Shown here: piece after piece, positions 6,807 through 40,800 of the stretch
Position numbering within the stretch: the stretch's first letter is position 1
How the letters are laid out: each line of letters begins with the position of its first letter
IMG/VR virus record: IMGVR_UViG_3300031840_000582
Span: 2,858-66,857 of that record
Source of the DNA: a virus
DNA: 64,000 nucleotides
Direction: 5' to 3' (one strand)
Notes under the pieces: model-generated
Databases searched by the model: none
The model's input: only the letters and a program-made list of their open reading frames with translations
Told to the model about the DNA's origin: nothing
Position numbers and translations under genes: made by a program

Positions 6807-9800
6807 ATGGGTATTTTTGTAAATTCTGTTAACGTTGATGACGCGACTCTTACTATCGGCCTTAGTGCGGAAGAACTTTATCGACCAATCAACCCAGACT
6901 GCCCTCCACCCGCTGACAGTAGCTCAGGCCCCGGTGGTGGCCTTAACATAATTCCAAGTGATCCTGTAACTGAACCTCCTTCTGGTTACACTCCCGAAGC
7001 CGGTGATAGTGGCTGGTATTATGATGAATGTATGGATTGCTGTTACCCAGTGACAGATAAAATCCTTAATTATATGGAGTTTAAGGTTGCGACATTTCTT
7101 TCGCCGGGTTATACTCAAAACATTACTTGTGAGGAAGTAGACGTAGACGCTATAGTCACCTCCGCTGAAGCCGCTGGTGACGCTGTTGTTGTGGCTATTG
7201 ACCCAAGACTTCATGCTGCTGGGACGCTATCTAATGCGTTGGTCAAGGAGAAGAGCGACGGTTCTCGCGCTTATGAATTAAATTATAATGCCACCATTGA
7301 ATTGCCTGACGGGGCAGACACTGATCACATTGAAGTGGTGTCATATGTAAATATTGATTTTGAACGAATGAAGAACGATTACGGCTTTGAGGCAGGCAAT
7401 AATTTGCAAGCAGAGACTATAAAATTGATGGCACTTAAGGCGAATTTAGATAAGGTTCGAGAGCGTGGCAAAGTAAACGAGACAATCCCATACTTTGTGA
7501 ATCCTGCAACAGGCAAGACATGGACCGGGCCAGTTCATTATCACCCGCCGACAAGAGGCTATATGGGCGGCGCAAAGCACACGATGTTACCACAGCCCCT
7601 GTTGGTCCAGAGAACAATGCCGAACTTAAAAGTTGTGGATAATTCCACTACAAAAAAAGAACTATTAGGTTTGGATTTAGGCCGCGCATTAACAAATGAC
7701 CCATACGATGAAATTGATAGACTAAACAGCACCGGGACTAAACAGCAAGTTGCCAAGACGTTTGTATCAGATCCTGTGTTGTCAAAAACTAACGACGGAA
7801 AAGTTAGCTTTGTCTTTTACATGGATCCTGAATCTGTGGTCAGAGCTAACAGTAAATTTCCCGGTATTAGGGAGCAGGGCATTTATCGAAGAACCCCAAT
7901 TGAAAGCATTCAAATTTTTCGTGAGCGTGCTATCGAAGGTGCCGATCTCACAGAACTAGGCGTCAAAAAAGTTGGCAAGGACACCAGAGGCAAGCAATCA
8001 CAAGAGAGGGAGCTAGTGGTTTATTCGTCAGACCAAAAGTCATACGGCGAAGACATGCAAACTATGAACGGTGCAGTGAAAGATGTGTACTCAAGAGGAC
8101 TACAAACTAATAGATATTCCGTTGATGAAGACTTTGATGGCATCAAGGAAGTGGAAGTAGGGATTATTTCTGAGACACCGGTTCGAAACATCACTAGTAG
8201 AGGATACCGTGCATTTACAGTAGAAGACATGCAAATCTCTAATAGAACTTCAGGTAAATTTAGATATTCCACTGAGATTGAATTTAAAGATCCAACTGTA
8301 GCTTACATTAATCGAAAGTTAGCCGTGATTTGCGAAGCCAAAGATAAGTTAGAGGAACTAGTTTCGTTCATTGACAACGTAAAAGCTTACGATATGTTGA
8401 ACAAAAAATACACTAGAGATTATAAGAAAAGGTACAAGAGGGCACATACTAGAACCGCTAAGATGGTGACTAGAGAGGTCATGAAGCTGCTAAAAGCAAT
8501 TACCGGACAAAGCTTTAGTGCGGCACAAAATTATATGATATCTAACCTAAGTGTTCAGAACGGCAGTCCTCAAGGTATTGAAAATATAATTGAAGTGATA
8601 GGCTCAATAGAAGACAAGCTAAAGCTAGCTCTTGGCAACAGTATTGACAATGCAAATACAAATAATGCTGGCGCTGAAAAAGATCCTACTATCTCCAAAA
8701 AGTCAAATGCAGATTTGGGGATGGTTCGCGTAGAAAAAGAGTTTGATGCAATTGTCGATCAAACAAATGAGCGCCCATTGAAACTAGACTACACAACCGC
8801 AAGGGCCAATAGCTTCCCCAGCATGACTGACAAGTCTTACGAAGAGAGAATCAATTTAGAACGTAGAAAGTTCTACTCAGACTCGAATACTCGTCGTAGG
8901 AATAACGCTAAAAGTAGGTCTAATTTACCTAAAAGAAAGCTTCAAGCTCTTAGTAGAAGTCGTAACAGATCAGATTACAGCTACCTTACACCAGCATTTG
9001 TTAGATGTGGCACAACAACCATGGATCTGGTTGGTGACAATACACAGATAGACAATCTAGAACAGTATAAGAGTATTAATTTTAGGTCCGCAAGAGGTAA
9101 TAAGCCACTGTCTGTTGAAGCACCACCTGAAAATACTAGCATGCTAGAATTATCTGAAGACATATTGACAGAGTTGGGAATCTCTGTAACGCTACGCCCA
9201 ACAGAATCAAGTAAAGACAAGCAGTACAATAGTGATAGCACTAAGGTATTTGGATCAAAAAGCTTTGCTGACAAAAACACTGAACCGGATAGGATTGCAA
9301 AGAAGCCAAAGAGAGATAGATTTGTGATGTCGGCCACCGAAACCATTGCCACAGCGGTATTAAACAAGGCTCAAGATACCGACATATTAAATCCAGATGC
9401 GCCAATTAATCAAGACCAAGAAATTCCAGACATAACGGATGCGACAGAGAGTCGAAAGCTTGCAATTTCAAAATTTGATGTCCTAAGAGAGGATAACATC
9501 TTAAATGATCTTGATGCATCTAAGATTGAACAAATGCCAATTGGCTTACGAGCATTGTTTGATTCAAGAGACGATGCAAGATTTAATTGGGTCGATCATG
9601 ATCTTGACCTTGTAAAGGATCCAAGAGTGCAAGATATATTTACTTACAATCAAGGTAGCACTGTAAAAGTTGAATATTTAGCCGACTTTGAATCAACCTT
9701 TGGCGGCAAATCACTTAAGAAGCCGCGATACTCTCCACTAACAAAAGAAGTGATAGATAGTGTCCCTGAGGGAGAATCCCTTCTCGTCAGATTGCGACCA

Positions 9801-10157
9801 ATTAGTCTAAATGAATTTGGCGTTCCAGACGATTCGGTGCCCAGCTTAGGTGCTGATATATTGACAGAAAACTTTTTTATCACCTCGACTACGCCTTCAA
9901 CAACAGGAGTAGTTGCAGTTGACCCGGTTACAAGAATGGAGGAGAGTCCAGAGATTACTGATGTCGAAACGCAAGTAAATGCAGTATACGACATGATCCC
10001 TGACGAGCCTTCGACTGTATCATATGTTTGTGTCGCAGGCGTTTCTGGCCGCATCCAGTCTGCAAATCTAGGCGCAACACTTTTTGCTGGCGATTCACGC
10101 CCCGGCCCTTTAATGCGGCCAGTTAGTTCAACGAGCACAGGAGGCGGCGGTTACTAA
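6807..10157 (+). CDS. Large hypothetical virion protein
   Basis: 1116-aa ORF with SD AGGAG at ~6793, inside the structural operon. Its stop overlaps the next ATG (TAATG). Confidence 0.5.
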   Translation: MGIFVNSVNVDDATLTIGLSAEELYRPINPDCPPPADSSSGPGGGLNIIPSDPVTEPPSGYTPEAGDSGWYYDECMDCCYPVTDKILNYMEFKVATFLSPGYTQNITCEEVDVDAIVTSAEAAGDAVVVAIDPRLHAAGTLSNALVKEKSDGSRAYELNYNATIELPDGADTDHIEVVSYVNIDFERMKNDYGFEAGNNLQAETIKLMALKANLDKVRERGKVNETIPYFVNPATGKTWTGPVHYHPPTRGYMGGAKHTMLPQPLLVQRTMPNLKVVDNSTTKKELLGLDLGRALTNDPYDEIDRLNSTGTKQQVAKTFVSDPVLSKTNDGKVSFVFYMDPESVVRANSKFPGIREQGIYRRTPIESIQIFRERAIEGADLTELGVKKVGKDTRGKQSQERELVVYSSDQKSYGEDMQTMNGAVKDVYSRGLQTNRYSVDEDFDGIKEVEVGIISETPVRNITSRGYRAFTVEDMQISNRTSGKFRYSTEIEFKDPTVAYINRKLAVICEAKDKLEELVSFIDNVKAYDMLNKKYTRDYKKRYKRAHTRTAKMVTREVMKLLKAITGQSFSAAQNYMISNLSVQNGSPQGIENIIEVIGSIEDKLKLALGNSIDNANTNNAGAEKDPTISKKSNADLGMVRVEKEFDAIVDQTNERPLKLDYTTARANSFPSMTDKSYEERINLERRKFYSDSNTRRRNNAKSRSNLPKRKLQALSRSRNRSDYSYLTPAFVRCGTTTMDLVGDNTQIDNLEQYKSINFRSARGNKPLSVEAPPENTSMLELSEDILTELGISVTLRPTESSKDKQYNSDSTKVFGSKSFADKNTEPDRIAKKPKRDRFVMSATETIATAVLNKAQDTDILNPDAPINQDQEIPDITDATESRKLAISKFDVLREDNILNDLDASKIEQMPIGLRALFDSRDDARFNWVDHDLDLVKDPRVQDIFTYNQGSTVKVEYLADFESTFGGKSLKKPRYSPLTKEVIDSVPEGESLLVRLRPISLNEFGVPDDSVPSLGADILTENFFITSTTPSTTGVVAVDPVTRMEESPEITDVETQVNAVYDMIPDEPSTVSYVCVAGVSGRIQSANLGATLFAGDSRPGPLMRPVSSTSTGGGGY

Positions 10158-13100
10158 TGAGTTTAACTAAAAAATACGTTTACGTCCATCACTGTAGTTT
10201 AGCTGAAGACACGCCTGATAATTTTAGAAAAGTTATGGGTCGGGCTTGGGTGCCAAGCTCTAGACTTGGGTTACAGTACGGATTTAATGTAGATCCTCCC
10301 GTTATGGATATGACATTTGGGCCTTACTTAGAGTGGGAGCACGATTATTTCTTCTCGACCCAAGTACCAGCAACAACTCAGCTAGTCTCAATTAAACCAA
10401 ATCCGTACTACTTCCCGCCGATCCCTGATGCCGAAGAGCCTTGTTGCGGTTGGTATGCATACCTCGGAAGGTTCTTTGCAGATCATTTTAGTAGTGGTAA
10501 TCCGCTACAGATCCTAAGAGGAGTTCTAAAAGACAGAGTTGCTGGCTATAGAGCGTCCCTGTCTGATCTCGGCTACTCTGGGCCAATCGACCAGAAGTAT
10601 TTCCCAGATGACTCGTGCGGAAGAAGGCTAAATTATGGGCCAATCCAGTCCGACGACCCTGAAGACACGCCACCACCTGAGGTTAATATTCCGGGTGCGA
10701 TGGCCTTGGTCTCAAATTCAATGGCCGTTCCTGTTAACCCAAACCAAGCCGGTCCAGAACCAGAACAAGCCGAAACAAATAGGGCAAAAGTCAGGTTGTT
10801 CAGAGACCTTTGGTTTCAAATGTTCGCGCCTTTTTCAGAGCTTGAAGATGGGTATCTTGAAGGTAAGCCTAAGGCAATGGTTGGCGATGTTAAATTTAGC
10901 TATAACTTTTTCCTAGAGGCCTACGAGCGTCAGCTCAGAGGAAATACTTTACCAGAAATTAGAATACCAAACTTATACTTGTCCGTGTATAAGGACGGAT
11001 CAGTACCATATGTGCTATATCTAAGTGAAAATGTAGGCTGTAGATTCAAAGAATTTGCTAAGTTAGTTCTGCAAAAGGGATACACAGAGTACCTAATTCC
11101 TGTTAAGCAGCAACCGTTTTTACAAGATAAGAATGTGTATTCTAAATCATTCCCGATGGATGCCACAGTTTCTTTCAGCACTGACAGGAATACTTTTGTT
11201 GCAGATGCTCTTGAGGACTCGAAACTAGAGTGTAACATGCTCCGTAGAGTGTCGGAAGGCGAGGTCAGGCTAGACGTTGCAACCACACCGCCAACTGCTT
11301 TTACTCCAACCTCTGAAGGCAACCTCAAGCCACCCCCTGAAGAGACAATGGAGTTTGCCTATGCAAAGCGTTACTACGATACTTTGTCGAACGCATATAC
11401 TCCAAAAGCAAGCGTGCCAAATCAAGTAAGCAATTATAAAGCATCTTACGGCCCGTTTGGTAGAGACTTGAGGACGTTCGATTTTTATCAATGGATGATG
11501 AGTCTACCAGATATCCCTGCTTCTTCAGTGTCGTTCCCCGGCGATCATGTTTTTCTTGGTAACCAAAACGATTCCACCGACATGGCCTTAAGGTCCGGCC
11601 TATACCAAAGAGACTTGTCATACTTGGCGAATTACTTTATTATGTCAGGTAAGGTTAACCAGATAGCCGAAACCCATCTCAGAACTTATCAGCAAATGAT
11701 GAGAGGTGACACACCACACTCCGAAACTATTCTTTATAAATTATCTAAGTATTCGACAGCCGAACTACAACAGCAGTTAGAGACAGTTCTATCTTCTAGT
11801 CCAATGTTGCGCGATCAGATCTTGCTTGGTAACGATGGGACCGCTGCCTTGGCTGGTGAAGACTTTGAAAAACTTGAAGCTATATTCGACGAAATTGAAC
11901 AGATCGGCATTACTCCAATTCAAAATGTGTGGATTCCCAACTCTAACTCAATTGACATTTTTGAATATGTTGATACACAAGTAAAGTATAATAAAGAGTA
12001 CACATACGTTGTAACTGCATACCAGTTGTCTGTTGGGACCGAGTATTTTTACTCTCAGTATTTTGGCCAAAGACCAGAAGATCCACAGCCACAGCCATGT
12101 GAAAACGCTACAATTGGTAATCAAGCCATTGCAGGAGTCTACAATCTACAAGAGTCACCTCTGGATGTAACAGGGGTTCCACCAACAGGAACTGCTGTAC
12201 CGCTATTAAGAATTGTTTACGATGCCTCGCTATCCGAAGGAGAAAAGTACAATCTTATAAACCAATTACTGTCAGAGAACAGCCAGTGGAAAAGCTTAAC
12301 TGGTGGTGGAACGGTTGATACCTGCGAAGGTACTGGCATGGCAATCCTCAGAAGGCAGATCTCCGATGGAGGCACCGACCAGTCAGGGCAAAGTTTTGGT
12401 CCCGAATTTGAATACCTTGTGCTTTGTTACTGTTTTGATTTCTTCAACCCCAATCCAGATCAGTGGTCTGTTGTAACAATAATTGAAAACAAGCAAGTAA
12501 GATCATCCGGCGATCAAACAGCCGGGACTGGTAAAAACGAACCAGCTTGTACAATTTATGGTCAGCTTAGAGTTGCCCTACGAGCTGAATTAAATTTAGT
12601 TGACGCATCATCGATAACTGACGAGATCTTAGAAGTGTTCGGCGTCACAGACCCTGCGGACCTCCCAACCTACCAGAGAACAACCACGGTCAGAGGGCGA
12701 CTAAGAGCAGAGCAGTGTCCAGACGGTTGGATAGAGGGCAAAGTACAGAGACAAGTTACAACAGCAGAAGCCACATCATATGCAGCAGGATTTGAGGTAA
12801 CTGCACTTGGGGCCACTGAACTTAAAGCAGTCTGCGAATGTCCCGAGCCTGAACCTTGCAGGGAAACCTTCTTGGTTACAACATTCCCAAGTTTAAAAGT
12901 TCATGAAATTCCGTACATGTTGTGGTCCGGCAAGGTCACAGACTCTCATCCCGTAGGCCCCGATGTAGAAATTAATCCTTACAGAGCTGTTAATAACGAG
13001 ATGTTATTCCAGATAGGTGCAGGTCTTGGCGATTACTACGACCGCCCAATTGCCATTTTTGAAAGAGAGAAGGCAATGTTCGAAGAGCTGTTAAGATCTC

Positions 13101-13951
13101 AGCGGTCAACTGATGGTAATGTCTTGTTTAGTTCAGACGATCCAGTTAGAGGGTTTGAGTCACTTATGTTAACTGACAAGCCCACAAGATATACTGACTT
13201 CTCAACCGGCGTAAGAAAACTTATATCAACAGAGGTTGCAGAAAAACCAAATCAATATGCAGATGCAGTATCTATGGTCGAAACTCTTGTTCCGAATCAA
13301 AAATATTATTATATCTTCAGATCTATTGATGTTCATGGGCACGTTTCAAACCCAACACCAATTTACGAAGTGGAACTAGTTGACACAGACGGTGCCATTT
13401 ATCCATTAATTAATATTTATGAACCAGATCCAAGCTTGCCTGTCGATCTAAGCAAGCAAGGCCAGAGACTATTGCAGATTAGGCCTGAGTACCTACAATC
13501 AGTATTAGATGTAGAATCATCTGGCTTGTCCGATGCGACAACAGCCGGTACACCTACAGGCGGACCCGCTGGAGATCTCAAGCTAGGAACAAGAAGTGAG
13601 AGACTGTGGGATAAGAACTTTAAGATGCGCGTCACATCGTGTGAAACTAGAAGGATGCTAGAAATCAATCTCAAATTTAAGACTGAGCATATTGCACTGG
13701 ACGCCTGCCCCCCAGAGTACGAAAAGACTACGATTAGTGCTAACGATGGCCTCAGTATTCCTGATGGAGTAATGGATTTGATTCCGGGTAGCGAAAGTAA
13801 GCCTTCAAACGGTTCAGCTCCGAGATCTGGAGGCGGCTCCACTTCTGGTGGTACAACCGTGACAGCAGATGTTAGCAACACTATATCACTAATAAACGGC
13901 TCAGGTGGAGGCACGACTGGCGGTGGATCAACTGGCGGTTCTTCATATTAA
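10157..13951 (+). CDS. Large hypothetical virion protein, possibly with Fn3/Ig-like modules
   Basis: 1264 aa. Motifs YVDTQVKYNKEYTYVVTAY and LVPNQKYYYIFRSIDVHGHVSNP resemble fibronectin-III strands. Gly/Ser-rich C-terminal tail. Confidence 0.5.
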   Translation: MSLTKKYVYVHHCSLAEDTPDNFRKVMGRAWVPSSRLGLQYGFNVDPPVMDMTFGPYLEWEHDYFFSTQVPATTQLVSIKPNPYYFPPIPDAEEPCCGWYAYLGRFFADHFSSGNPLQILRGVLKDRVAGYRASLSDLGYSGPIDQKYFPDDSCGRRLNYGPIQSDDPEDTPPPEVNIPGAMALVSNSMAVPVNPNQAGPEPEQAETNRAKVRLFRDLWFQMFAPFSELEDGYLEGKPKAMVGDVKFSYNFFLEAYERQLRGNTLPEIRIPNLYLSVYKDGSVPYVLYLSENVGCRFKEFAKLVLQKGYTEYLIPVKQQPFLQDKNVYSKSFPMDATVSFSTDRNTFVADALEDSKLECNMLRRVSEGEVRLDVATTPPTAFTPTSEGNLKPPPEETMEFAYAKRYYDTLSNAYTPKASVPNQVSNYKASYGPFGRDLRTFDFYQWMMSLPDIPASSVSFPGDHVFLGNQNDSTDMALRSGLYQRDLSYLANYFIMSGKVNQIAETHLRTYQQMMRGDTPHSETILYKLSKYSTAELQQQLETVLSSSPMLRDQILLGNDGTAALAGEDFEKLEAIFDEIEQIGITPIQNVWIPNSNSIDIFEYVDTQVKYNKEYTYVVTAYQLSVGTEYFYSQYFGQRPEDPQPQPCENATIGNQAIAGVYNLQESPLDVTGVPPTGTAVPLLRIVYDASLSEGEKYNLINQLLSENSQWKSLTGGGTVDTCEGTGMAILRRQISDGGTDQSGQSFGPEFEYLVLCYCFDFFNPNPDQWSVVTIIENKQVRSSGDQTAGTGKNEPACTIYGQLRVALRAELNLVDASSITDEILEVFGVTDPADLPTYQRTTTVRGRLRAEQCPDGWIEGKVQRQVTTAEATSYAAGFEVTALGATELKAVCECPEPEPCRETFLVTTFPSLKVHEIPYMLWSGKVTDSHPVGPDVEINPYRAVNNEMLFQIGAGLGDYYDRPIAIFEREKAMFEELLRSQRSTDGNVLFSSDDPVRGFESLMLTDKPTRYTDFSTGVRKLISTEVAEKPNQYADAVSMVETLVPNQKYYYIFRSIDVHGHVSNPTPIYEVELVDTDGAIYPLINIYEPDPSLPVDLSKQGQRLLQIRPEYLQSVLDVESSGLSDATTAGTPTGGPAGDLKLGTRSERLWDKNFKMRVTSCETRRMLEINLKFKTEHIALDACPPEYEKTTISANDGLSIPDGVMDLIPGSESKPSNGSAPRSGGGSTSGGTTVTADVSNTISLINGSGGGTTGGGSTGGSSY

Positions 13952-22174: not shown

Positions 22175-25100
22175 GTGGGGGTAAACTTGAAGTTTGCACA
22201 TATCGCGGATACACACATCCGCAATTATAAGTATCATAAAGAATATCGAGCTATCTTCGATCAAATTTATGACCGATTGAAAAAAGAGAAAGTTGACTAC
22301 ATTGTACATTGTGGCGACTTAGCACATACAAAAACACAACTTTCTCCTGAATATTTTGATTTGGCTGCATCGTTCCTGAGTAATCTTGCGGACATTGCGC
22401 CTACCTATATCATTCTTGGAAACCATGATGGCAACCTTAAGAACGAGCACAGGCAGGATGCAATTACGCCTATTGCAAAGGCACTAAACCATCCAAATCT
22501 ACATCTCTTGCGAGACGCAGGCGAGACTGTGCTAAGCGATGACTTAGCATTTAATGTTCTATCTGTGTTCGATGAGGAGAATTGGGTCAAGCCATCCAGC
22601 GACGAACGTATCAATATCGCGCTGTATCACGGTTCTGTATCAGGCGTTAAGACTGACACAGGCTGGGTGATGACACATGGCGACCACCCAATCGAAGTCT
22701 TTGAGGGACATGATTATGTGTTCCTTGGAGATATTCACAAAACGAACCAGATCCTTGATGATGAGGGTCGGGTAAGGTATCCGGGCTCCACTGTTCAACA
22801 GAACTTTGGTGAGACAGATGACAAAGGATTCTTGCTGTGGAACATCCAAAGCAAAGATGACTTTACTTGTGACCACATCGTAATTCCGAATCCCAAGCCT
22901 TTTATAACAATAAATCTAACCCCCACCGGGCGCATGCCCAAAGGCTTATCTGTTAAAAAGGGATCGCGTTTACGACTTGTGTCTAACAATAATTTGTCTC
23001 TTGAAGCGATGCGGAAGGCAGTAGATGTCGCAAAACAACGCTTCAAGCCCGATACCATATCGTTTCTTAACCGCGCCGCTGGGGAGCGTGGCAACGTTGA
23101 AGAAATCACCGATAGTATTCATCAGGATGATATGCGTAACCCGCAGATTCAAGAGGAATTAATTCGTGAGTATCTGGTAGACTACCAAGTTACCGAAAGC
23201 TTGATGAAGAAGGTACTAGACCTAAACTCACTATACATCAAGAAAGCCGAAGAAAGCGAAGAAATTTCTAGAAACATTAAGTGGCGTATTGGTGAGCTAC
23301 AATGGGATAATTTGTTTAACTACGGAGACAGCAATCGAATTGACTTTGCTCGTCTGAACGGAACTGTTGGTATCTTTGGAAAGAATTATTCTGGCAAGTC
23401 CAGTATTATTGATAGCTTATTGTATACAATTTTTAATACAACTTCCAAGAACGAGCGTAAGAACGTAAATATTATCAACCAGAACAAAGAAGATGGTTCA
23501 GGCGAAGTGGTCATCAACATTGGTGATGAACAATATTACATCCGACGAAGCTCGTCTAAATACACAAAGCGACTCAAGGGGGTCGAGACTCTTGAAGCAA
23601 AAACCGATCTTGACTTTTTCAAGATTGATGCGAACGGAGAAAAGGTAAGTTTAAATGGACTCACAAGAAACGACACAGACAGAAACATCAGAAAGGTATT
23701 CGGATCCATTGATGACTTTCTACTCACTAGTTTGTCTAGCCAGTTGGATAGTCTTTCCTTTATTAGGGAAGGCAGCACAAAACGGAAGGAAATCTTGGCA
23801 AAGTTTCTCGACTTGGAGATCTTCGAAAAGAAATTCAAACTAGCAAAAGACGATGCTGCTGATATGAAGGGTGCTCTTCGACGCTTGGAAGGCAGGGAGT
23901 ATGACGCCGAGATCGAAGCAGCAGAGCAAGAGCATGCTCAATGTGAAGAGAACCTAGAAGAACAGCAGTCTGTTTGCGAGACTCTCAGAAACGAAATATC
24001 CAAATTAGTTTCTGGCATTGAAGAAGTAGATCGTATGATCGATTCTATCCCAGCGGAAATGATTGATATCGTAAACGTTAAGGCTGAACTAGTGCGTAAG
24101 CGTTCCTTGTTAGAGAGAACACAGAATAGTCTAAAAAATAACAAGACAAATTTACAAGAGAAAGAAGCACTCGTTGAGAAAATTGAAGAGTTTCTAGACA
24201 ACTATGATATTGAAGACTTAATTAAGAAGCAAAGCGATTCAAGCAATCTCTGGAATCGGATCAATGATTTGCGAGCGGAGCTTGAACGAATTGATAAAAA
24301 GGCCTCGTCCCTAAACGACCCTGAGTTTCTAAGAGGTTGTAAGTGTCTTCGTGAAGCAGAGGACGCACTGGCTAAGAAGCCAGAGGTTCAAGAGAAGATC
24401 GATATATTTACCACTGAGCACCGTGCGATGGACCCGGAGGGTGTAGACAAGAAGGTGGAGCAATATAACTCTTTGGTTGCTAAGAAAGACCAAACTCAGA
24501 GAGATATTACCAACACACAATTGCTAATCGCTCAGAATGAAAATTCTATGAGTAGCCTAATCTCTGATATCGAAGCTTTGGAGGAAAAAGAATCTTCTTA
24601 CGAAGATAACAAAGAAGCGATTGAAAACTTAGAAGCTCTGCTGGCACAGAAGCAAGAGAGTGAGTCTGCTCTACAAGACCGTGAAACAAAGCTACAAGCT
24701 TGTGAAAAAGAGATTGTTACCCATCATCGTCTTGTTGGTTCGTTAGAGCAGAAGGTGCTAAATATCAAAGAACAAAAGCAAGAGTACATTGATCTTCGTG
24801 AGCAGTTTGCGGCATATGATCTATACATGCGCTGTATGCACCCTAATGGTATTGCTTATGATGTCATTAAAAAGAAGCTGCCGGTTATCAATCAAGAGAT
24901 TGCGAAGGTTCTCGCCAACCTCACTACCTTTGAGGTTCTTTTTGAAGAAGAGGGAAATAAGCTAGATATCTTTATCAAGCACCCAAGCCATGACCCTCGA
25001 CCGCTATCAATGGCATCTGGGGCAGAGAAAACAATGGCTGCAATGGCGATTCGTTTGGCTTTCCTAGCCGTATCTAATTTACCAACCAGCGATATCATGG

Positions 25101-25285
25101 TTCTGGACGAGCCGGGTACTGCTTTAGATGAAGAACATTTGCAGTCCTTTACGCAGCTTCTTGACATGATTAAGGCACATTTCAAGACCATTTTGCTAAT
25201 CTCGCACCTTGACTCTTTGAAAGATGTTGTAGATTCAACACTTGACATTTCTAAGAAACAAGGTTATGCTTATATAAATCAGTAA
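22175..25285 (+). CDS. Fused Mre11/SbcD nuclease and Rad50/SbcC ATPase (T4 gp47-gp46-like)
   Basis: Phosphoesterase motifs DTH, GDL, GNHD, GDIH. Walker A GKNYSGKSS, long coiled coil, signature ASGAE, Walker B VLDEP, H-loop ISH. Confidence 0.9.
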   Translation: MGVNLKFAHIADTHIRNYKYHKEYRAIFDQIYDRLKKEKVDYIVHCGDLAHTKTQLSPEYFDLAASFLSNLADIAPTYIILGNHDGNLKNEHRQDAITPIAKALNHPNLHLLRDAGETVLSDDLAFNVLSVFDEENWVKPSSDERINIALYHGSVSGVKTDTGWVMTHGDHPIEVFEGHDYVFLGDIHKTNQILDDEGRVRYPGSTVQQNFGETDDKGFLLWNIQSKDDFTCDHIVIPNPKPFITINLTPTGRMPKGLSVKKGSRLRLVSNNNLSLEAMRKAVDVAKQRFKPDTISFLNRAAGERGNVEEITDSIHQDDMRNPQIQEELIREYLVDYQVTESLMKKVLDLNSLYIKKAEESEEISRNIKWRIGELQWDNLFNYGDSNRIDFARLNGTVGIFGKNYSGKSSIIDSLLYTIFNTTSKNERKNVNIINQNKEDGSGEVVINIGDEQYYIRRSSSKYTKRLKGVETLEAKTDLDFFKIDANGEKVSLNGLTRNDTDRNIRKVFGSIDDFLLTSLSSQLDSLSFIREGSTKRKEILAKFLDLEIFEKKFKLAKDDAADMKGALRRLEGREYDAEIEAAEQEHAQCEENLEEQQSVCETLRNEISKLVSGIEEVDRMIDSIPAEMIDIVNVKAELVRKRSLLERTQNSLKNNKTNLQEKEALVEKIEEFLDNYDIEDLIKKQSDSSNLWNRINDLRAELERIDKKASSLNDPEFLRGCKCLREAEDALAKKPEVQEKIDIFTTEHRAMDPEGVDKKVEQYNSLVAKKDQTQRDITNTQLLIAQNENSMSSLISDIEALEEKESSYEDNKEAIENLEALLAQKQESESALQDRETKLQACEKEIVTHHRLVGSLEQKVLNIKEQKQEYIDLREQFAAYDLYMRCMHPNGIAYDVIKKKLPVINQEIAKVLANLTTFEVLFEEEGNKLDIFIKHPSHDPRPLSMASGAEKTMAAMAIRLAFLAVSNLPTSDIMVLDEPGTALDEEHLQSFTQLLDMIKAHFKTILLISHLDSLKDVVDSTLDISKKQGYAYINQ

Positions 25286-33512: not shown

Positions 33513-33563
33513 ATGCGACGTAGAAATATCCCAGAAGTTCGACGCTGTTGTAGCGGTTCCTAA
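33513..33563 (+). CDS. 16-aa peptide MRRRNIPEVRRCCSGS
   Basis: SD AAGGAG 6 nt before the ATG. The ORF fills most of the intergenic gap and is followed by a GC hairpin. Confidence 0.45.
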   Translation: MRRRNIPEVRRCCSGS

Positions 33564-35877: not shown

Positions 35878-37989
35878 ATGTCCAATCGTAAATTAGTAGG
35901 AACCGAATTTAGAAACGAGTTTCTTAGATCACTTAACGTTCTCGCCCCCCGTATTGCAGCGGCGATTGAAAAGTATGGTGAAGATACCGTTGATGTTATT
36001 AACTTTGCCTCGTCAGGCACGGCCACGCTTAACAATGTAAGCATTACTGGCCTGACGGATATAGTTTCTGATGCTACAACCGAAGATGTGTTGGATATTA
36101 CAGCAGACTCTCTTACGACAGCTAATGTTATCGACATTTCAGCAGATGCCTTAACGACAGGAACTATCCTAAACCTTGTTTCTGATTCATCAGACAATAG
36201 TTCCCGCACTCTTTTGAAAGTTTTAAACGACAATTCAAGTGCAACAGGAACGAGCGCCGCATCGTTTGAGACACATGCAGTTCAAACTTGCGTATCAATC
36301 CACAACGACAATACAGAAACTGATTTTGGACCTATTCTCACTGTAAATAGAAAGTCCTCCACGGTTGCTGATGATATGGGAGTTGGGATAATAAACTTTC
36401 AAGGTCTTACAGATGGTAGCACCTCAACTGGATTCGCTAGGATATCAGCAGAGGCAAGTGATGTATCAGATGCAACACCCAGAGGAAAATTAATTCTTCG
36501 GGCTCAATTAAATATTGATGGCTCTGAACCTAACGCTGTTGAAGAACTTATGTCCTTGGGCGGGGGAACCGGGTCAAACGCACCAGAAGTTGTTATTAAT
36601 GATCTAAGCTATGATGTTGACTTCCGCGTTGAATCAAATGGCGAGACTCACATGCTGTTTGTTGACGGAGGAAACAACCGGGTCAGCATTGGAGACTCCA
36701 CAGACACCCCAGCGGCAACACTAGAAATTTCAAATGCAAGTAATGGCGGCGTTCCGCTTGTCCTACTGGACTCAAACGACACAGACAAAATATGCCTTGA
36801 CATCGATGCAGCCAACATCGACGCAGATGTAATTGATATCGCAGCCGACGCAGTAACTACAGCTTTTGTCATGGATGTTACCGCAGATGGACTTACAACC
36901 GGTGGTATCCTAAACCTTGTTTCGGATTCTTCAGATACAAGCGATAGAACACTTGTCAAAGTTACTAATGATAATACAGGTGCAACTGGCACCACAATTA
37001 TGCATCTTAAGAGCGATGCCGTAACTGATGATAATCCAATTTTGCTTATCGAATCCTCTGCTGCCGACACTGGTCCCGTTCTTGAACTAAGAAATACAAA
37101 CGCTGGTGTCAATCGTGAAGCAATCTTAAAATTTACAAGAAGCGATACATCAGCGGAAGCAGACGACATGGATCTTGGGCGTTTGCAATTTCAAGGTGCT
37201 GACAGTGGCAACAATGATACTATATATGTAGCTATTTTGGCAGAGGCCTCTGATGTCACTGACGGCGATGAGGGAGGCCTATTAAAATTTAGACTGTTCT
37301 CAGGCGGAACAGGAGGCACAGCCTCCTCCAATACGCTATTCTCAATCGGCGGTGAAGACGTTGCAAATTCAACACCTTGTGAAGTTATCGTCAACGAAGA
37401 CGGCATCGACTGCAACTTCCGTGTTGAATCAGATAACAATACCCATATGCTCTTCGTTGATGCGGCTGACGACACCGTAACGGTCGGAGGAGACGTTGCT
37501 CTTCACAAAGATGGTTTCGCTGTTATAAACAATTATCAGGCAACAACTTTTGAAAATACTTTAGCAGACGGGCGATTTGGTAGCGCCGAGATATTAAGAT
37601 ACTCTCCGGGCGCGGATGACACTCTTACAGCAGGGCAATTGTTTTTCTTGCACACAGACGGCACTTGGGACAGCACGGATGCTGATGCAGTTGCCACTGG
37701 CGCAACACAAATGCTTGGTATTGGCCTTGGTGGTTCGTCTCAGACAGTTGGCTGTTTAATTAAAGGATTCATACGAATCCCATCTACAGAAATACTAAAC
37801 CTTCCCGGCTCTGGTGCCTGCGACGGCCTGCCTCTTTATGTTTCAACAACAGCAGGCCACCTAGACTTTACAGCCCCATCTGGAAATGGTGACTTTGTTC
37901 GCACCGTTGGTTACGCAATTGATGATGATGGTGGCGACGTTCTTATTTACTTCAATCCAGATGCAACACATGTGGAGATTACAGCGTAA
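35878..37989 (+). CDS. Fibre/spike-like virion protein with an internal tandem duplication
   Basis: Two copies of ADxLTTGxILNLVSDSS...ADDM...FRVESxxxTHMLFVD. ACTAATTA at 35843. Confidence 0.65.
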   Translation: MSNRKLVGTEFRNEFLRSLNVLAPRIAAAIEKYGEDTVDVINFASSGTATLNNVSITGLTDIVSDATTEDVLDITADSLTTANVIDISADALTTGTILNLVSDSSDNSSRTLLKVLNDNSSATGTSAASFETHAVQTCVSIHNDNTETDFGPILTVNRKSSTVADDMGVGIINFQGLTDGSTSTGFARISAEASDVSDATPRGKLILRAQLNIDGSEPNAVEELMSLGGGTGSNAPEVVINDLSYDVDFRVESNGETHMLFVDGGNNRVSIGDSTDTPAATLEISNASNGGVPLVLLDSNDTDKICLDIDAANIDADVIDIAADAVTTAFVMDVTADGLTTGGILNLVSDSSDTSDRTLVKVTNDNTGATGTTIMHLKSDAVTDDNPILLIESSAADTGPVLELRNTNAGVNREAILKFTRSDTSAEADDMDLGRLQFQGADSGNNDTIYVAILAEASDVTDGDEGGLLKFRLFSGGTGGTASSNTLFSIGGEDVANSTPCEVIVNEDGIDCNFRVESDNNTHMLFVDAADDTVTVGGDVALHKDGFAVINNYQATTFENTLADGRFGSAEILRYSPGADDTLTAGQLFFLHTDGTWDSTDADAVATGATQMLGIGLGGSSQTVGCLIKGFIRIPSTEILNLPGSGACDGLPLYVSTTAGHLDFTAPSGNGDFVRTVGYAIDDDGGDVLIYFNPDATHVEITA

Positions 37990-38579
37990 TGCTAAAAACA
38001 AGAATTGAAGATCAAAATTTAATTTTTACTGATGACGCCATTATAGTGGAAAATGATAAGCTTCAAAATCTCCATGCTGGTATTGAAGTTATGATGGATT
38101 GGGAAAGTGGCTTGATGAGGAGGCACGCTGAATTAGTATGCGAGAATGGAGGAGATATACTAGAAATAGGGTTTGGCATGGGCATCTCGGCTAACTTTAT
38201 TCAAGAACTAAATCCTGATTCTCACACAATCGTAGAAAGTCATCCACAAATTATAGAAAAGCTAAAAGAATGGGCTACTGATAAGCCAAGTGTTACTGTG
38301 GTCGAAGGTAGGTGGTTTGATGTGATAGACCAGCTTGGCGTATATGATGGCGTTTTCTACGATACATTTGGTGACGATGATTATTCAAAGTTTGGCACAG
38401 AGTCAGTTAAATTTACAAAGCCCGGTAGTATTATCACAGCGTGGAATGCTGTAAGCCAGCCAAATCAAAATTTATATGGGTTCGCTGGTAACGTGACATA
38501 CGAAGAAATAGATGTAACTCCCCCAGACAATGGATATTTTTTTGGTAACAAATATTATTTATTTAAGGTTGTAGTGTAA
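37989..38579 (+). CDS. Class I SAM-dependent methyltransferase, RMT2/GAMT-like
   Basis: VMMDWE...HA...GGDILEIGFGMG...HTIVESHP...EGRW...YDGVFYDTF follows the RMT2/guanidinoacetate methyltransferase motif order. Confidence 0.8.
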   Translation: MLKTRIEDQNLIFTDDAIIVENDKLQNLHAGIEVMMDWESGLMRRHAELVCENGGDILEIGFGMGISANFIQELNPDSHTIVESHPQIIEKLKEWATDKPSVTVVEGRWFDVIDQLGVYDGVFYDTFGDDDYSKFGTESVKFTKPGSIITAWNAVSQPNQNLYGFAGNVTYEEIDVTPPDNGYFFGNKYYLFKVVV

Positions 38580-39319
38580 TGCCAACAACAAACATAACTG
38601 CTGCTGCGACTGGTGGTTTTGTAAGATCAAACGTAACCTCTACTGGTAATGACGCCACTGACTTCGCCACTGCAAGAAACAAGAACACGGGAGATGTTAT
38701 CGATCTCACCGATACCGCTGACTTAATAGGCGGGATTAAAACGACCGGTCGAGGCGCAGCTTCGTTCTCTGTCGGGCGCTTGTTTCACGCCTTTGACACT
38801 AGTGGTATTACAAGTGGCGTAACTAGTGTTACGCTTCAGATTGAAAGGGTATCAACAACATCTGATTGCGATCTAATAGTGGTCAAAGCTAGCAAACCAG
38901 ATACTAGTACGGACTTGGTTCTTGCAGATTTCGATGCTATTCCCGGTTTTACAGATGATGCATCTATGAGTGGAAATGTTACGGAATACTCATCTGAAAT
39001 AGTGGCGGGTACTATCGGAACTACCAGAACGGATGTGACGCTTAATTCAACAGCTATAAGTGACGTGCAATCTCTCGATACTTTTGCTATTGCTATAATT
39101 GAGCACACTCATGACTATTCCAACGTAACACCAACGGATGCATCAAGTTTTGTGTTTCTTGAGGGTGTTACAGGAGTACCGGCATCTGAGCAGCCTAGAC
39201 TTGTTGTCGTAACATCAGGCGGCTACACACACAATGTTATGGGCGTAGCTGCTGCAAACATTGCAAAGGTTGATGGAGTCGCCACAGCCAACATTGGCAA
39301 AATCAATGGTGTTGATTAA
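38579..39319 (+). CDS. Hypothetical virion protein
   Basis: T/S/D-rich, with C-terminal repeats GVAAANIAKVDGVATANIGKINGV. Confidence 0.5.
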   Translation: MPTTNITAAATGGFVRSNVTSTGNDATDFATARNKNTGDVIDLTDTADLIGGIKTTGRGAASFSVGRLFHAFDTSGITSGVTSVTLQIERVSTTSDCDLIVVKASKPDTSTDLVLADFDAIPGFTDDASMSGNVTEYSSEIVAGTIGTTRTDVTLNSTAISDVQSLDTFAIAIIEHTHDYSNVTPTDASSFVFLEGVTGVPASEQPRLVVVTSGGYTHNVMGVAAANIAKVDGVATANIGKINGVD

Positions 39320-39366
39320 TTTATAGGATACTACTTATTAATACACATGTCACAAATGGAGCAATT

Positions 39367-39660
39367 GTGAGCAACAGAAACTATAGAAACCACAGAGGTC
39401 GGGACCATAATCGTAGAGAAAGATATACCCCACCTCATGTAGGCAAGAGGCACAGCAATTTAACAGTCGTGCCGAGACAAAATGAGCCAATCGAAAGAGC
39501 GATTCGCAGATTTATTAAAAAATGTAAGAAGATGAAGATCATCGAAACATACAGAGAAAAGACTGATTATTATGAAAAGCCATCAGTTGTGCGAAGAAAA
39601 AAAGCAATTCGCCGCCAGAGAGCAATTGATAAGGCAAACAAAGCTAACGCAAACAGATAG
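39367..39660 (+). CDS. rpsU: Phage-encoded ribosomal protein bS21 homolog with an Arg-rich N-terminal extension
   Basis: VVPRQNEPIERAIRRFIKKCKK...YYEKPSVVRRKK is the bS21 signature. ACTACTTA at 39330. Confidence 0.85.
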   Translation: MSNRNYRNHRGRDHNRRERYTPPHVGKRHSNLTVVPRQNEPIERAIRRFIKKCKKMKIIETYREKTDYYEKPSVVRRKKAIRRQRAIDKANKANANR

Positions 39661-39747: not shown

Positions 39748-40800
39748 ATGTCAACAATGTTAGAACAAGCTTTAGTAGATGCAACTGCTCTTAGAGAAGC
39801 AGCACTTAAAAACGCAGAGACTGCAATTCTTGAGAGATACGCAGATGACGTGAGAACCACCATGGACTCGCTCTTGGCTGAACAAGAGGATATGGGCGAC
39901 ATGGGAATGGAAATTGCCGACGAAGATCCAGAAGGCGACATTCCAGATGCAGCCACTAGTGATCTTAAGGTGTGTCCAGACGATGATGAAGTAAAGACTT
40001 TTACTTTTTCTCTAAACGACCTCCGCGACACCCTTGATAAGCTAAGTGATGATGAGGCTGGAGAGCCAGAAGATTCAGAAGAGCTTGCTATGGACATGGG
40101 CGCTGAGCCTGAAGAAGAAGAGTTGGAATTGCAAGAAGATCTAGAGTTAGACGAAGAGATGCTATTTGAGTATCCTGAAGGACAAGTTGACGAGCAAGAA
40201 GAAATTACAGAAGACGAGACTGCACTCCCAGAAGGTATCGACCTAGATAAATTGGTTGAGGAAGTTATCGTTGATCTTGCTGGAGATGAACTAACTGGCT
40301 GGGCAGGACGCCCACGATCAGATGTTGACCACGCCAAAGAAATTAGATTAGCACGGGCTGCTTCCACCGAGGCCAAAGAGCAAAATGAAAAGCTCAAGGC
40401 AGCACTCGAAGAACTCGCAGAGTCAAGCAAGGCTGTAGCTAATGAAAACCAACTTCTCAAGCAAACACTTGAGACTATGAAAGAGAAACTTGAAGAAGTC
40501 AATCTTTCAAATGCAAAACTACTTTACATGAATCGGACATTGAATAGTCCCTCCCTGAATGAGCGGCAAAAAACTAAAATTGTCGAATCTATTCAGAATT
40601 CTGATTCAGTTGAAGAAGCGAAGGTAATTTTTGAAACCCTTCAAAGCGCAGTGGGCTCTTCCAAGAAGAAGCCAGAATCACTACGCGAAGCTATCAAGAG
40701 ACCTTCTATTTCCGTGCCTAGTAGAAGAAACAAATCTTCACAACGTGATACGATTGTGAAAGAACGCTTCCAACGCTTGGCTGGAATTTCTAGAAACTGA
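39748..40800 (+). CDS. Prohead scaffold/core protein (T4 gp22-like)
   Basis: Acidic and coiled-coil, immediately before the major capsid gene, many L-x-E sites, C-terminal RFQRLAGI. ACTATTTA at 39698. Confidence 0.75.
   Translation: MSTMLEQALVDATALREAALKNAETAILERYADDVRTTMDSLLAEQEDMGDMGMEIADEDPEGDIPDAATSDLKVCPDDDEVKTFTFSLNDLRDTLDKLSDDEAGEPEDSEELAMDMGAEPEEEELELQEDLELDEEMLFEYPEGQVDEQEEITEDETALPEGIDLDKLVEEVIVDLAGDELTGWAGRPRSDVDHAKEIRLARAASTEAKEQNEKLKAALEELAESSKAVANENQLLKQTLETMKEKLEEVNLSNAKLLYMNRTLNSPSLNERQKTKIVESIQNSDSVEEAKVIFETLQSAVGSSKKKPESLREAIKRPSISVPSRRNKSSQRDTIVKERFQRLAGISRN

Follow-up and report, generated by a model that had tools for sequence, protein, structure and literature searches.

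Among the genes of the window, which is the whole 64,000-nt stretch of uncultured marine phage DNA analysed here, lies one for a methyltransferase that clearly belongs to the GAMT/RMT2 family and whose actual conserved partner is a 246-aa protein of predicted carbohydrate-binding-module (CBM) fold, not seen in an earlier sequence-only reading of this DNA. The probable substrates of this enzyme are surface proteins of the phage itself; synthesis of creatine and modification of the bS21 homologue encoded nearby are considered less probable. Its family, its fold, the conservation of its catalytic residues and its gene linkage are established by the evidence laid out below. The locus is organized as follows:

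35878..37989, + strand: 703-aa ORF from the ORF list, virion fibre-like protein
37987..37991, + strand: TAATG overlap of the fibre gene and the methyltransferase gene, read directly
37989..38579, + strand: 196-aa ORF, GAMT/RMT2-family methyltransferase
38577..38581, + strand: TAATG overlap of the methyltransferase gene and the CBM-like gene, read directly
38579..39319, + strand: 246-aa ORF, beta-sandwich protein of predicted CBM fold
39367..39660, + strand: 97-aa ORF, bS21 homologue, GTG start with GGAG upstream

The two overlaps bear out the earlier claim that the methyltransferase gene is coupled to both of its neighbours. The last A of the TAA stop codon of the 703-aa ORF (37987-37989) is the first A of the ATG at 37989-37991, and the last A of the TAA stop codon of the 196-aa ORF (38577-38579) is likewise the first A of the ATG at 38579-38581. 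In 77 related loci, the spacing between the methyltransferase gene and the CBM-like gene ranges from -19 to +12 nt, with the identical 1-nt overlap in 33 of the 77 pairs; such tight spacing indicates that the close packing observed in the window is not due to chance. The module of the window is set among T4-type head genes, and near-identical copies of the DNA of this phage occur in seawater metagenomes of about ten studies; no RNA data set is listed among them. A small Arg-rich ORF of 16 codons is also present at 33513 and looks conserved; no link between this ORF and the methyltransferase was seen.

Assignment of the 196-aa protein relies on three comparisons that all rank GAMT as the best match, in agreement with the RMT2/GAMT-like identity initially proposed. 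In phmmer searches of the PDB, human and rat GAMT were recovered with E-values of 1.3e-16 to 1e-15 (human GAMT 3orh, 1.3e-16; 1xcj, 4e-16), the next PDB sequence being found at 0.012. The AF2 model of the protein (pLDDT 92) has GAMT as its top Foldseek match (E 2e-15, TMq 0.81, rmsd 2.7), ahead of spermidine synthase (E 1e-8, TMq 0.63). The outcome that the earlier reading had named as a refutation, best structural matches to spermidine-synthase-like or glycan methyltransferases, thus did not occur. The same ranking was obtained with VIA-align against 48,161 chains, where GAMT reached Z 23.2 (187 residues aligned, rmsd 2.1, 27% identity), the next chain Z 15.2 and spermidine synthase Z 14.7. 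The similarity to the GAMT structures (3orh, 1xcj, and 1khh) extends over almost the whole length of the fold, and a W-E pair, a Y-D-T catalytic stretch and the SAM motif line up. Nevertheless, the phage enzyme is 40 residues shorter than GAMT and the sequence similarity ends at residue 156.

Enzymes of the GAMT/RMT2 family methylate the internal nitrogen of a guanidino group. Residues E39 and D125 of the phage protein align with GAMT E45, which we take to be the guanidino-binding residue, and D134. In the mechanism of GAMT, Asp134 is described as accepting the proton (PMC12471008). Motif I of the phage protein reads I-L-E-I-G-F-G-M-G, and both this SAM-binding motif and the acidic residue following strand 2 (E83) are kept. 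All 35 aligned family members share W38, E39, L58, E59, G61, F62, G63, M64, E83, and D125, and the strict conservation of the SAM motif, E83 and the catalytic Asp points to selection for catalysis. Local searches with Pfam, PHROGs and NCBIfam returned sub-threshold matches to generic methyltransferases or none; the local copy of Pfam lacks PF27704, the family label borne by relatives of the window protein.

These relatives are numerous, as 1320 of them (counted as protein clusters) were found. PF27704 is precomputed on 120 of the 120 among those listed, including one that is 95% identical to the window methyltransferase, and several bear the JGI label 'protein arginine N-methyltransferase 2'. 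The best long relative is an algal protein combining ankyrin repeats with PF27704, to which the phage enzyme aligns at 43% identity over 168 aa (140 bits, compared with 64 bits for GAMT) and which displays what we take to be the layout of plant and algal RMT2. Another relative, from a bacterial MAG, is fused to TPR repeats. In two more, the fusion partners are adenylation domains, and in one a pyridine-nucleotide oxidoreductase, indicating that small-molecule or carrier-bound substrates occur in the GAMT/RMT2 family. The likeness to the yeast Rmt2 type resides in the labels and domain layout of relatives. In cellular genomes, the family is rare: a pattern scan covering 185,579 species, each represented by a single genome, yielded only 9 loci, which fits a virus-specific function of any kind. 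Among 50,697 GenBank phage records, the methyltransferase matches a single uncultured huge phage, in which neither partner gene adjoins it, and no cultured phage carrying the three-gene module was found.

The 703-aa protein encoded upstream ends in a phage-cement-like domain of ~145 residues (about 37546-37980). A profile built from related C-termini matches its residues 557-701 with an E-value of 3.7e-44. PF09956 (Phage_cement_2) matches 13 of 38 related C-termini (best E 5.2e-5) and PF22758 matches 1 of the 38; the C-terminus of the window protein itself gave no PF09956 match at E 0.1, and the domain has no PDB sequence match. In an Atlas feature search, the domain scored 0.96 to a cluster in which 26% of the members carry PF09956. 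The invariant columns of the domain alignment are W34, G67, G87, R112, and P131, and an invariant arginine of the fibre protein, R675 (codon 37900-37902), lies in a V-R-x-V-G-Y motif. Upstream homologues in two related loci (L002 and L006) match tail-fibre PHROGs. Among the GenBank phage records, the cement-like domain matches only Flavobacterium phage immuto, where it lies at the end of a protein annotated as 'tail fiber protein' and no methyltransferase gene adjoins it.

The 246-aa protein has no Pfam or PHROG sequence match and no match among the same 50,697 GenBank phage records. By the fold of its AF2 model (pLDDT 88.5), it is a CBM96-like beta-sandwich, for which sugar binding is a prediction. 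Its best structural matches are polysaccharide-binding modules for acidic sugars, namely 8wab and 7vbo (Foldseek E 3e-6 and 7e-5, respectively), recovered by VIA-align with Z 16.4 (166 residues aligned, rmsd 2.8) and Z 13.8, the next match having a Z of 9.2. Matches in BFVD comprise CBM96-domain proteins and tail proteins. A near-invariant G-R-G-G hairpin loop carries R58 (codon 38750-38752), and R67 is invariant. The C-terminus is a flexible tail made of two short repeats (39239-39316), a motif found nowhere else in the window.

Conservation of this gene order supports a tie between the methyltransferase and genes of the virion-fibre type, as the sequence-only reading had surmised. A relative of the methyltransferase is encoded by 504 IMG/VR stretches, of which 80 were kept for locus analysis and, together with one GenBank huge phage and the window, make up the 82 loci considered here. 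The CBM-like gene (220-250 aa) abuts the methyltransferase gene in 77 of them, immediately after it in 69 and immediately before it in 8; 4 loci lack it, and 1 offers no room for it. Translating the 700 nt ahead of each pair showed that the preceding gene has the cement-like domain at its end in 72 of the 82 loci (no room in 5, absent in 5). When loci are clustered at 90% identity, 43 of 46 clusters contain the pair and 38 of the 42 with sufficient room the cement domain, and the linkage is maintained through 22 clusters at 70% identity. The module was found on contigs of about 36 kb to 270 kb, in one case (L006) directly after the terminase and portal genes. Loci L028, L034, L070, and L094 carry the methyltransferase without both partners or without the CBM-like gene. 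A reciprocal search was seeded with the CBM-like protein, using a profile from a 12-sequence sub-alignment given that the full alignment is too variable for a collection scan. Of the 30 loci with upstream room that it recovered, 7 carry the cement and CBM module without the methyltransferase, indicating that the enzyme is dispensable for the module. These 7 methyltransferase-free modules conserve R58 and R67 in the CBM-like protein and R112 in the cement domain to the same degree as those with the enzyme, and no target signature follows its presence. A glycine four residues before the invariant Arg occurs in 33 of 38 sequences with the enzyme versus 3 of 7 without it, in a small sample of related sequences. 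None of the upstream proteins in the 82 loci has a C-terminal tail of a glycine run followed by Arg-Gly; the closest counterpart is the internal G-R-G-G loop of the CBM-like protein.

We consider it likely that the methyltransferase works with the fibre/CBM module, and three other roles have to be weighed against this view. The enzyme could target a component of translation, either the Arg-extended bS21 of the phage or a host ribosomal protein, as yeast Rmt2 does in making delta-N-methylarginine at R67 of Rpl12 (PMC10265986). The window does encode, one gene after the methyltransferase, a bS21 with an N-terminal extension, exactly as previously noted: PF01165 matches residues 33-86 (E 1e-13, 51.2 bits for a cut-off of 27) and TIGR00030 also matches (E 3.4e-12, 46 bits for a cut-off of 28.95), which leaves an Arg-rich extension of about 32 residues ahead of the S21 match, and the start of this extension, MSNRNYRN, is identical in the three relatives that have the bS21 gene. 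However, the link to the methyltransferase that had been drawn from this proximity finds no support in the survey of co-occurrence. A bS21 gene lies within 8 kb of the methyltransferase in only 4 of the 82 loci, all four being the closest relatives (at least 60% methyltransferase identity). It is found in 1 of 5 long methyltransferase-carrying virus records, about 14 kb from the methyltransferase, and two near-complete records of this kind (96% and 99% complete) have none. Moreover, the presence of bS21 among terminase, portal, protease and capsid genes has already been described as a general pattern (PMC9723584). bS21 is a neighbour within the phage clade of the window, outside the conserved module, and its modification, or that of a host ribosomal protein, by this enzyme appears highly improbable.

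An auxiliary metabolic gene (AMG) is a better-founded alternative, albeit one that we still regard as unlikely. In the infected cell, the enzyme would methylate a free small guanidino compound (guanidinoacetate, giving creatine, or else free arginine or another guanidino metabolite), and its position among structural genes would reflect late expression or the hitch-hiking of a mobile fibre cassette. The closest solved structure is that of GAMT, a small-molecule enzyme, and the relatives fused to adenylation domains are compatible with such chemistry. Furthermore, in a study with nine GAMT virus populations, viral GAMT (K00542) heads the list of AMGs enriched in viruses, at 85.4-fold relative to microbial homologues, and is proposed to serve creatine synthesis (Tian et al., 2024, PMC11360552). 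Yet 77 of 82 loci place the same CBM-like gene beside the methyltransferase, on one side or the other, and in 72 the same cement-like domain precedes them. Such linkage, which holds across 22 clusters at 70% identity, would hardly be expected of a metabolic passenger. The phmmer alignment to GAMT stops at residue 156, leaving the C-terminal part of GAMT unmatched by sequence, and ankyrin-fused relatives score above GAMT, with a TPR-fused relative besides. Unlike GAMT, the phage enzyme has nearer relatives fused to repeats and sits in a module of virion genes that has no amidinotransferase partner: no gene of the amidinotransferase family PF02274 was found in the record of the window or in the 5 long methyltransferase-carrying records, the two near-complete ones included. 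An amidinotransferase of this family is required to make guanidinoacetate, a substrate that the host could supply. Gene context argues against a role as a creatine AMG such as the 2024 paper assigned to viral GAMT (PMC11360552). Finally, the methyltransferase could serve the fibre complex as a structural component or adaptor, its fold being kept as a scaffold or ligand-binding part with methyl transfer irrelevant. Enzyme folds are often reused in the receptor-binding parts of phages, and frame overlaps with structural genes on both sides suggest that comparable amounts of the proteins are made. Nevertheless, 35 of 35 sequences keep the SAM motif, the acidic residue that follows strand 2 and the catalytic Asp unchanged, and 7 of 30 cement and CBM modules do without the methyltransferase and hence do not need it as a link, which makes this role very unlikely.

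The model that we favor is methylation of a neighbouring protein within a virion-surface module, for which we infer the substrate, the target residue and the effect. The module would consist of a fibre protein anchored by its phage-cement-like C-terminal domain, a methyltransferase of the GAMT/RMT2 family, predicted from its residues to be active and to depend on SAM, and a CBM-like protein related to binders of acidic polysaccharides. The three proteins would be co-produced late in infection from their coupled reading frames. Inside the infected cell, before or during assembly, the methyltransferase would modify an arginine in one or the other of the adjacent gene products. Candidate targets are R675, invariant in the cement-like domain, and, in the CBM-like protein, R58 at the exposed G-R-G-G hairpin. 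The ankyrin- and TPR-fused relatives and the linkage to two proteins with invariant arginines are indirect pointers to a putative RMT2-type methylation of the delta-nitrogen of peptidyl arginine. This modification could tune the cohesion of the fibre or adhesin, or its binding to sugars. Taken as a whole, from enzyme to methylated arginine in a virion fibre/adhesin module, the model stands in our judgement about an even chance of being correct. The phage enzyme would share with yeast Rmt2 a protein-arginine target, suggested here by gene context, but it has no repeat or targeting domain, and its presumed targets are virion proteins instead of a ribosomal protein.

Methylation of phage virion proteins was first reported in 2026, in two papers that both attribute it to host enzymes (PMC13288928, PMC13445384). 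Methylated Lys and Arg were described on structural proteins of Cellulophaga phages, for which, according to that paper, no phage-encoded methyltransferase with protein substrates is known (PMC13288928), and a mycobacteriophage tail protein requires methylation for adsorption (PMC13445384). The model proposed here likewise has a particle protein chemically modified before release, but by a methyltransferase that the phage itself encodes beside its presumed targets. Our literature search found no work joining arginine methyltransferase, tail fibre and phage, and in the titles and opening lines of abstracts retrieved for cement protein, methyltransferase, capsid, phage and arginine methylation, the module is not described. 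More tentatively than for the model itself, the enzyme may be the first virus-encoded protein arginine methyltransferase acting on its own particle, an RMT2-type enzyme depositing delta-N-methylarginine on a capsid- or tail-anchored fibre or on a polysaccharide-binding adhesin, thereby altering sticking to the host capsule or to marine gels; the module concerned would be frequent among marine phages.

Virion methylation would gain a defined and testable system in an enzyme that a phage encodes alongside its likely targets. The table of yeast methylation in PMC10265986 gives one substrate for delta-N-methylarginine, Rpl12 R67 modified by Rmt2, and a second, abundant natural context for this residue would be useful. 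The family is large, with its 1320 protein clusters and 504 IMG/VR stretches. Should the viral GAMT of the ocean survey (PMC11360552) be the same family, its metabolic inference would need revising, and if the model holds as well, the most virus-enriched 'metabolic' gene of the ocean would be an enzyme of virion maturation, not a creatine gene.

The window, 64 kb out of a 66.9-kb IMG/VR record whose completeness is estimated at 37%, contains a T4-type late gene block, and DNA near-identical to that of this phage was found in seawater metagenome runs from about ten studies, one of which may have supplied the record itself. The closest cultured relative of its capsid protein belongs to Flavobacterium phage immuto (~49% identity over 60% of the query). 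Seven ORFs, including the four considered here, separate the protease gene from a very acidic 350-aa ORF.

Late genes and the methyltransferase neighbourhood in the window
27391, large terminase of the T4-type late block
28979, portal of the T4-type late block
33594, prohead protease (PF03420, E 2e-30)
35878-37989, + strand, fibre-like protein, 703 aa
37989-38579, + strand, methyltransferase, 196 aa
38579-39319, + strand, carbohydrate-binding-module (CBM)-like protein, 246 aa
39367-39660, + strand, ribosomal protein bS21, 97 aa
40834, major capsid protein (PF07068, E 1e-71)
46375, tail sheath, followed by tail tube, baseplate hub and tape measure

The TAATG overlaps previously claimed on both sides of the methyltransferase gene are indeed read in the sequence. 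Several other features of the region deserve mention. The acidic ORF (39748-40800, + strand) has no family match and lies directly 5' of the major capsid gene, where a scaffold protein gene would be expected. A micro-ORF of 16 Arg- and Cys-rich codons (33513-33563, + strand) is preceded by AAGGAG 7 nt upstream and directly followed by a GC-rich hairpin and a T-run; five of the six substitutions that separate it from its counterpart in a related locus (L014) are synonymous, a pattern which suggests that it encodes a real small peptide. Further upstream, in a 1036-aa ORF (22175-25282, + strand), residues 5-366 match an SbcD-like nuclease PHROG and residues 304-1034 an SbcC-like ATPase PHROG; the product is apparently a Mre11/Rad50-type fusion. 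Three very large ORFs located upstream of the replication genes (105-5717, 6807-10154 and 10157-13948, + strand; 1871, 1116 and 1264 aa) have no PHROG match.

Searches of the methyltransferase against local Pfam, PHROGs and NCBIfam profiles returned only generic matches below threshold. Against all PDB sequences, four GAMT sequences came first (E 1.3e-16 to 1e-15), the next protein being at 0.012, and the alignment places W38-E39 of the query on the W-E pair of GAMT and Y-D125-T126 on Y-D134-T135. Glu45 of GAMT is presumably the residue that holds the guanidino group. Asp134 is described as the proton acceptor in the GAMT mechanism (PMC12471008). The GAMT/RMT2-type active site is intact. In a structure model built on 35 relatives (pLDDT 92), GAMT is far ahead of other folds according to two aligners: Foldseek ranks it first (E 2e-15, TMq 0.81), followed by spermidine synthase (E 1e-8, TMq 0.63), and VIA-align, run over 48,161 chains independently of Foldseek, gives it a Z of 23.2, with other class I methyltransferases at 15.2 or less. 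The RMT2/GAMT assignment proposed by the sequence-only reading thus stands, since neither spermidine synthase nor glycan methyltransferases provide the best structural match. The family is extensive, relatives at E <=1e-3 amounting to 1320 proteins, and PF27704 occurs in 120 of 120 among the matches listed. It is also well conserved: the 39 invariant columns of a 35-sequence alignment include the SAM motif, E83 and D125, a pattern suggesting that selection maintains catalysis.

The first 12 viral loci shared a single layout, with a large gene, the methyltransferase gene and a gene of 220-250 codons. A profile scan of IMG/VR then found 504 stretches encoding a relative, and the best-scoring 80 of these were compared together with one GenBank huge-phage locus and the window; more distant members of the 504 may differ, and the loci are metagenomic fragments, many of them related.

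Gene order around the enzyme in the 82 loci
Homologue of the 246-aa protein directly downstream: 69/82
Homologue of the 246-aa protein directly upstream: 8/82
Homologue of the 246-aa protein absent: 4/82 (L028, L034, L070, L094)
No room on the contig for this homologue: 1/82 (L038)
Conserved ~140-residue domain at the end of the gene ahead of the pair: 72/82
No room upstream for the gene with this domain: 5/82
Conserved ~140-residue domain absent ahead of the pair: 5/82

Spacing between the methyltransferase gene and its partner ranges from -19 to +12 nt, and 33 pairs have the same 1-nt overlap as the window. With many near-duplicate contigs in the set, counts were repeated on clusters of the enzyme at 90% identity, which gave 43/46 for the pair and 38/42 for the domain where there was room; at 70% identity, the values were 21/22 and 19/22. 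The three-gene module occurs on contigs differing widely in size and layout: it lies directly behind the terminase and portal genes in one locus (L006), and among T4-type head genes in the window. No cultured phage carrying the module was found among GenBank phages. The methyltransferase gene is co-inherited and frame-coupled with the fibre and CBM-fold genes. In one of the loci (L088:1-6103), an alternative frame remains free of stops for ~5.6 kb beside a 1576-aa repetitive fibre gene, probably as a by-product of a short-period repeat.

No family match was found for the 246-aa protein. Its model (pLDDT 88.5) best matches a chondroitin-sulfate-binding module (8wab, Z 16.4, 166 residues aligned), then an alginate-binding module (7vbo, Z 13.8), all further chains scoring 9.2 or less; Foldseek agrees, and the matches among viral models are tail and tail-fibre proteins and proteins with a CBM96 domain. 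Two residues of this family, R67 and D179, are invariant, six others (R33, R58, F69, F72, D73 and S75) nearly so, and R58 lies within a G-R-G-G loop joining two strands. Apart from this internal loop, no Arg-Gly motif comparable to a C-terminal Arg-Gly tail was found, the proteins upstream of the pair having no such tail. The C-terminal ~35 residues, modelled with low confidence, contain two copies of a short repeat (39239-39316, + strand). On the other side of the enzyme, one W, two G, one R and one P are invariant in the C-terminal domain of the 703-aa protein. The phage cement protein family PF09956 matches 13 of 38 members of this domain, the window copy not being one of them, and an Atlas feature search of the domain also points towards phage cement protein. 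Homologues of the upstream protein from two loci match tail-fibre PHROGs, and an annotated tail fibre protein of phage immuto ends in the same domain. On the basis of these matches, we call the 703-aa protein a putative virion fibre with a cement-like anchoring domain, whose location could be either head or tail.

The reciprocal search relied on a 12-sequence CBM-like profile, the full profile being too variable, and recovered 52 loci, 35 of which have a substantial CBM-like match. The methyltransferase gene adjoins the CBM-like gene in 23 of the 35; in seven, the CBM-like gene comes directly after the cement-domain gene and there is no methyltransferase closer than 3 kb; three loci start at a contig end and two have neither partner. 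Given the seven modules devoid of it, the methyltransferase is a frequent but dispensable addition to the fibre/adhesin pair, which fits the role of a modifier better than that of a building block. Comparison of modules with and without the enzyme singled out no target arginine, because the conserved arginines are the same in both. Sixteen further loci (including L141-L154) matched through the C-terminal repeat tail alone. The tail forms the end of the proteins concerned, which range from ~185 to ~820 residues, most being ~186 aa long and most encoded behind cement-domain genes; between the two genes, three loci (L142, L147 and L149) have a remote methyltransferase-like ORF (E 3e-10 to 4e-8). 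The repeat tail may be a docking element shared by a wider module family.

Viral genes labelled GAMT have been given a metabolic meaning. Tian et al. (2024) reported viral GAMT (K00542) to be 85.4-fold enriched over microbial homologues and suggested creatine synthesis (PMC11360552), and the GAMT label was used again in 2026 for gut P2-like viruses (PMC13100340); these genes may or may not belong to the family of the window enzyme. For this family, a role in creatine synthesis is made less probable by the fixed structural-gene neighbourhood, by a search of six records in which no gene of the amidinotransferase family was found, and by a closer similarity to repeat-fused proteins than to GAMT. 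Indeed, a green-alga protein combining ankyrin repeats and PF27704 scores 140 bits against the methyltransferase (43% identity over 168 residues), compared with 64 bits for GAMT. A search among longer proteins returned four fused relatives: this algal protein, two with an adenylation domain ahead of the methyltransferase and one with a pyridine-nucleotide oxidoreductase domain. A pattern scan of 185,579 prokaryote species, one genome each, yielded nine enzyme loci, all in MAGs and none with the phage partner genes; one is a TPR-repeat fusion. The closest cellular relatives carry protein-binding repeats as fusions, TPR in one alphaproteobacterial MAG and ankyrin in the green alga (L095:5245-6573 and protein P0191), and these repeats make us lean towards a protein substrate. 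The adenylation fusions indicate that the family also includes enzymes with small or carrier-bound substrates.

Phage bS21 had been proposed as one such protein substrate. The 97-aa product is bS21 with an extra N-terminal part, as anticipated, its S21 match beginning at residue 33. The extension (39367-39462, + strand) comprises 32 Arg-rich residues, the first eight being identical in all four phages with this gene arrangement. Co-occurrence across the 82 loci favours the fibre/cement-domain gene (72/82) and not bS21, which lies within 8 kb of the methyltransferase gene in only 4/82, namely the window and the three loci most closely related to it, all four with the N-terminal extension. Five long methyltransferase-carrying records include one with bS21, ~14 kb away, and none was found in the 96%- and 99%-complete records. 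Moreover, Chen et al. (2022, PMC9723584) had already described it as a general pattern, with late expression, that bS21 genes stand among those for terminase, portal, protease and capsid. The most plausible reading of the adjacency of bS21 and the methyltransferase is that each was inserted separately into one late operon.

The first reports of methylation on phage proteins date from 2026. Stai et al. (PMC13288928) state that there had been none earlier and present the phages they studied as not known to encode methyltransferases, and Fan et al. describe a mycobacteriophage tail protein methylated by a host enzyme (PMC13445384). We found no literature joining arginine methyltransferase, tail fiber and phage and, judging from titles and the beginnings of abstracts, no description of the three-gene module among the related papers listed. 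The enzyme family itself is not new, and its viral copies had earlier been recorded under a metabolic label. What appears to be new is the conserved association of the enzyme gene with genes for a fibre/cement protein and a CBM-fold protein, together with the interpretation drawn from it. Late in infection, the enzyme would draw on host SAM to place a methyl group on the internal guanidino nitrogen of an arginine in the fibre or the CBM-like protein, loop residue R58 of the latter and R675 of the cement domain being candidate targets. The methylated arginine would retain its charge with one hydrogen-bond donor fewer, which could alter how the protein binds sugar, how subunits dock or how sensitive the protein is to proteases.
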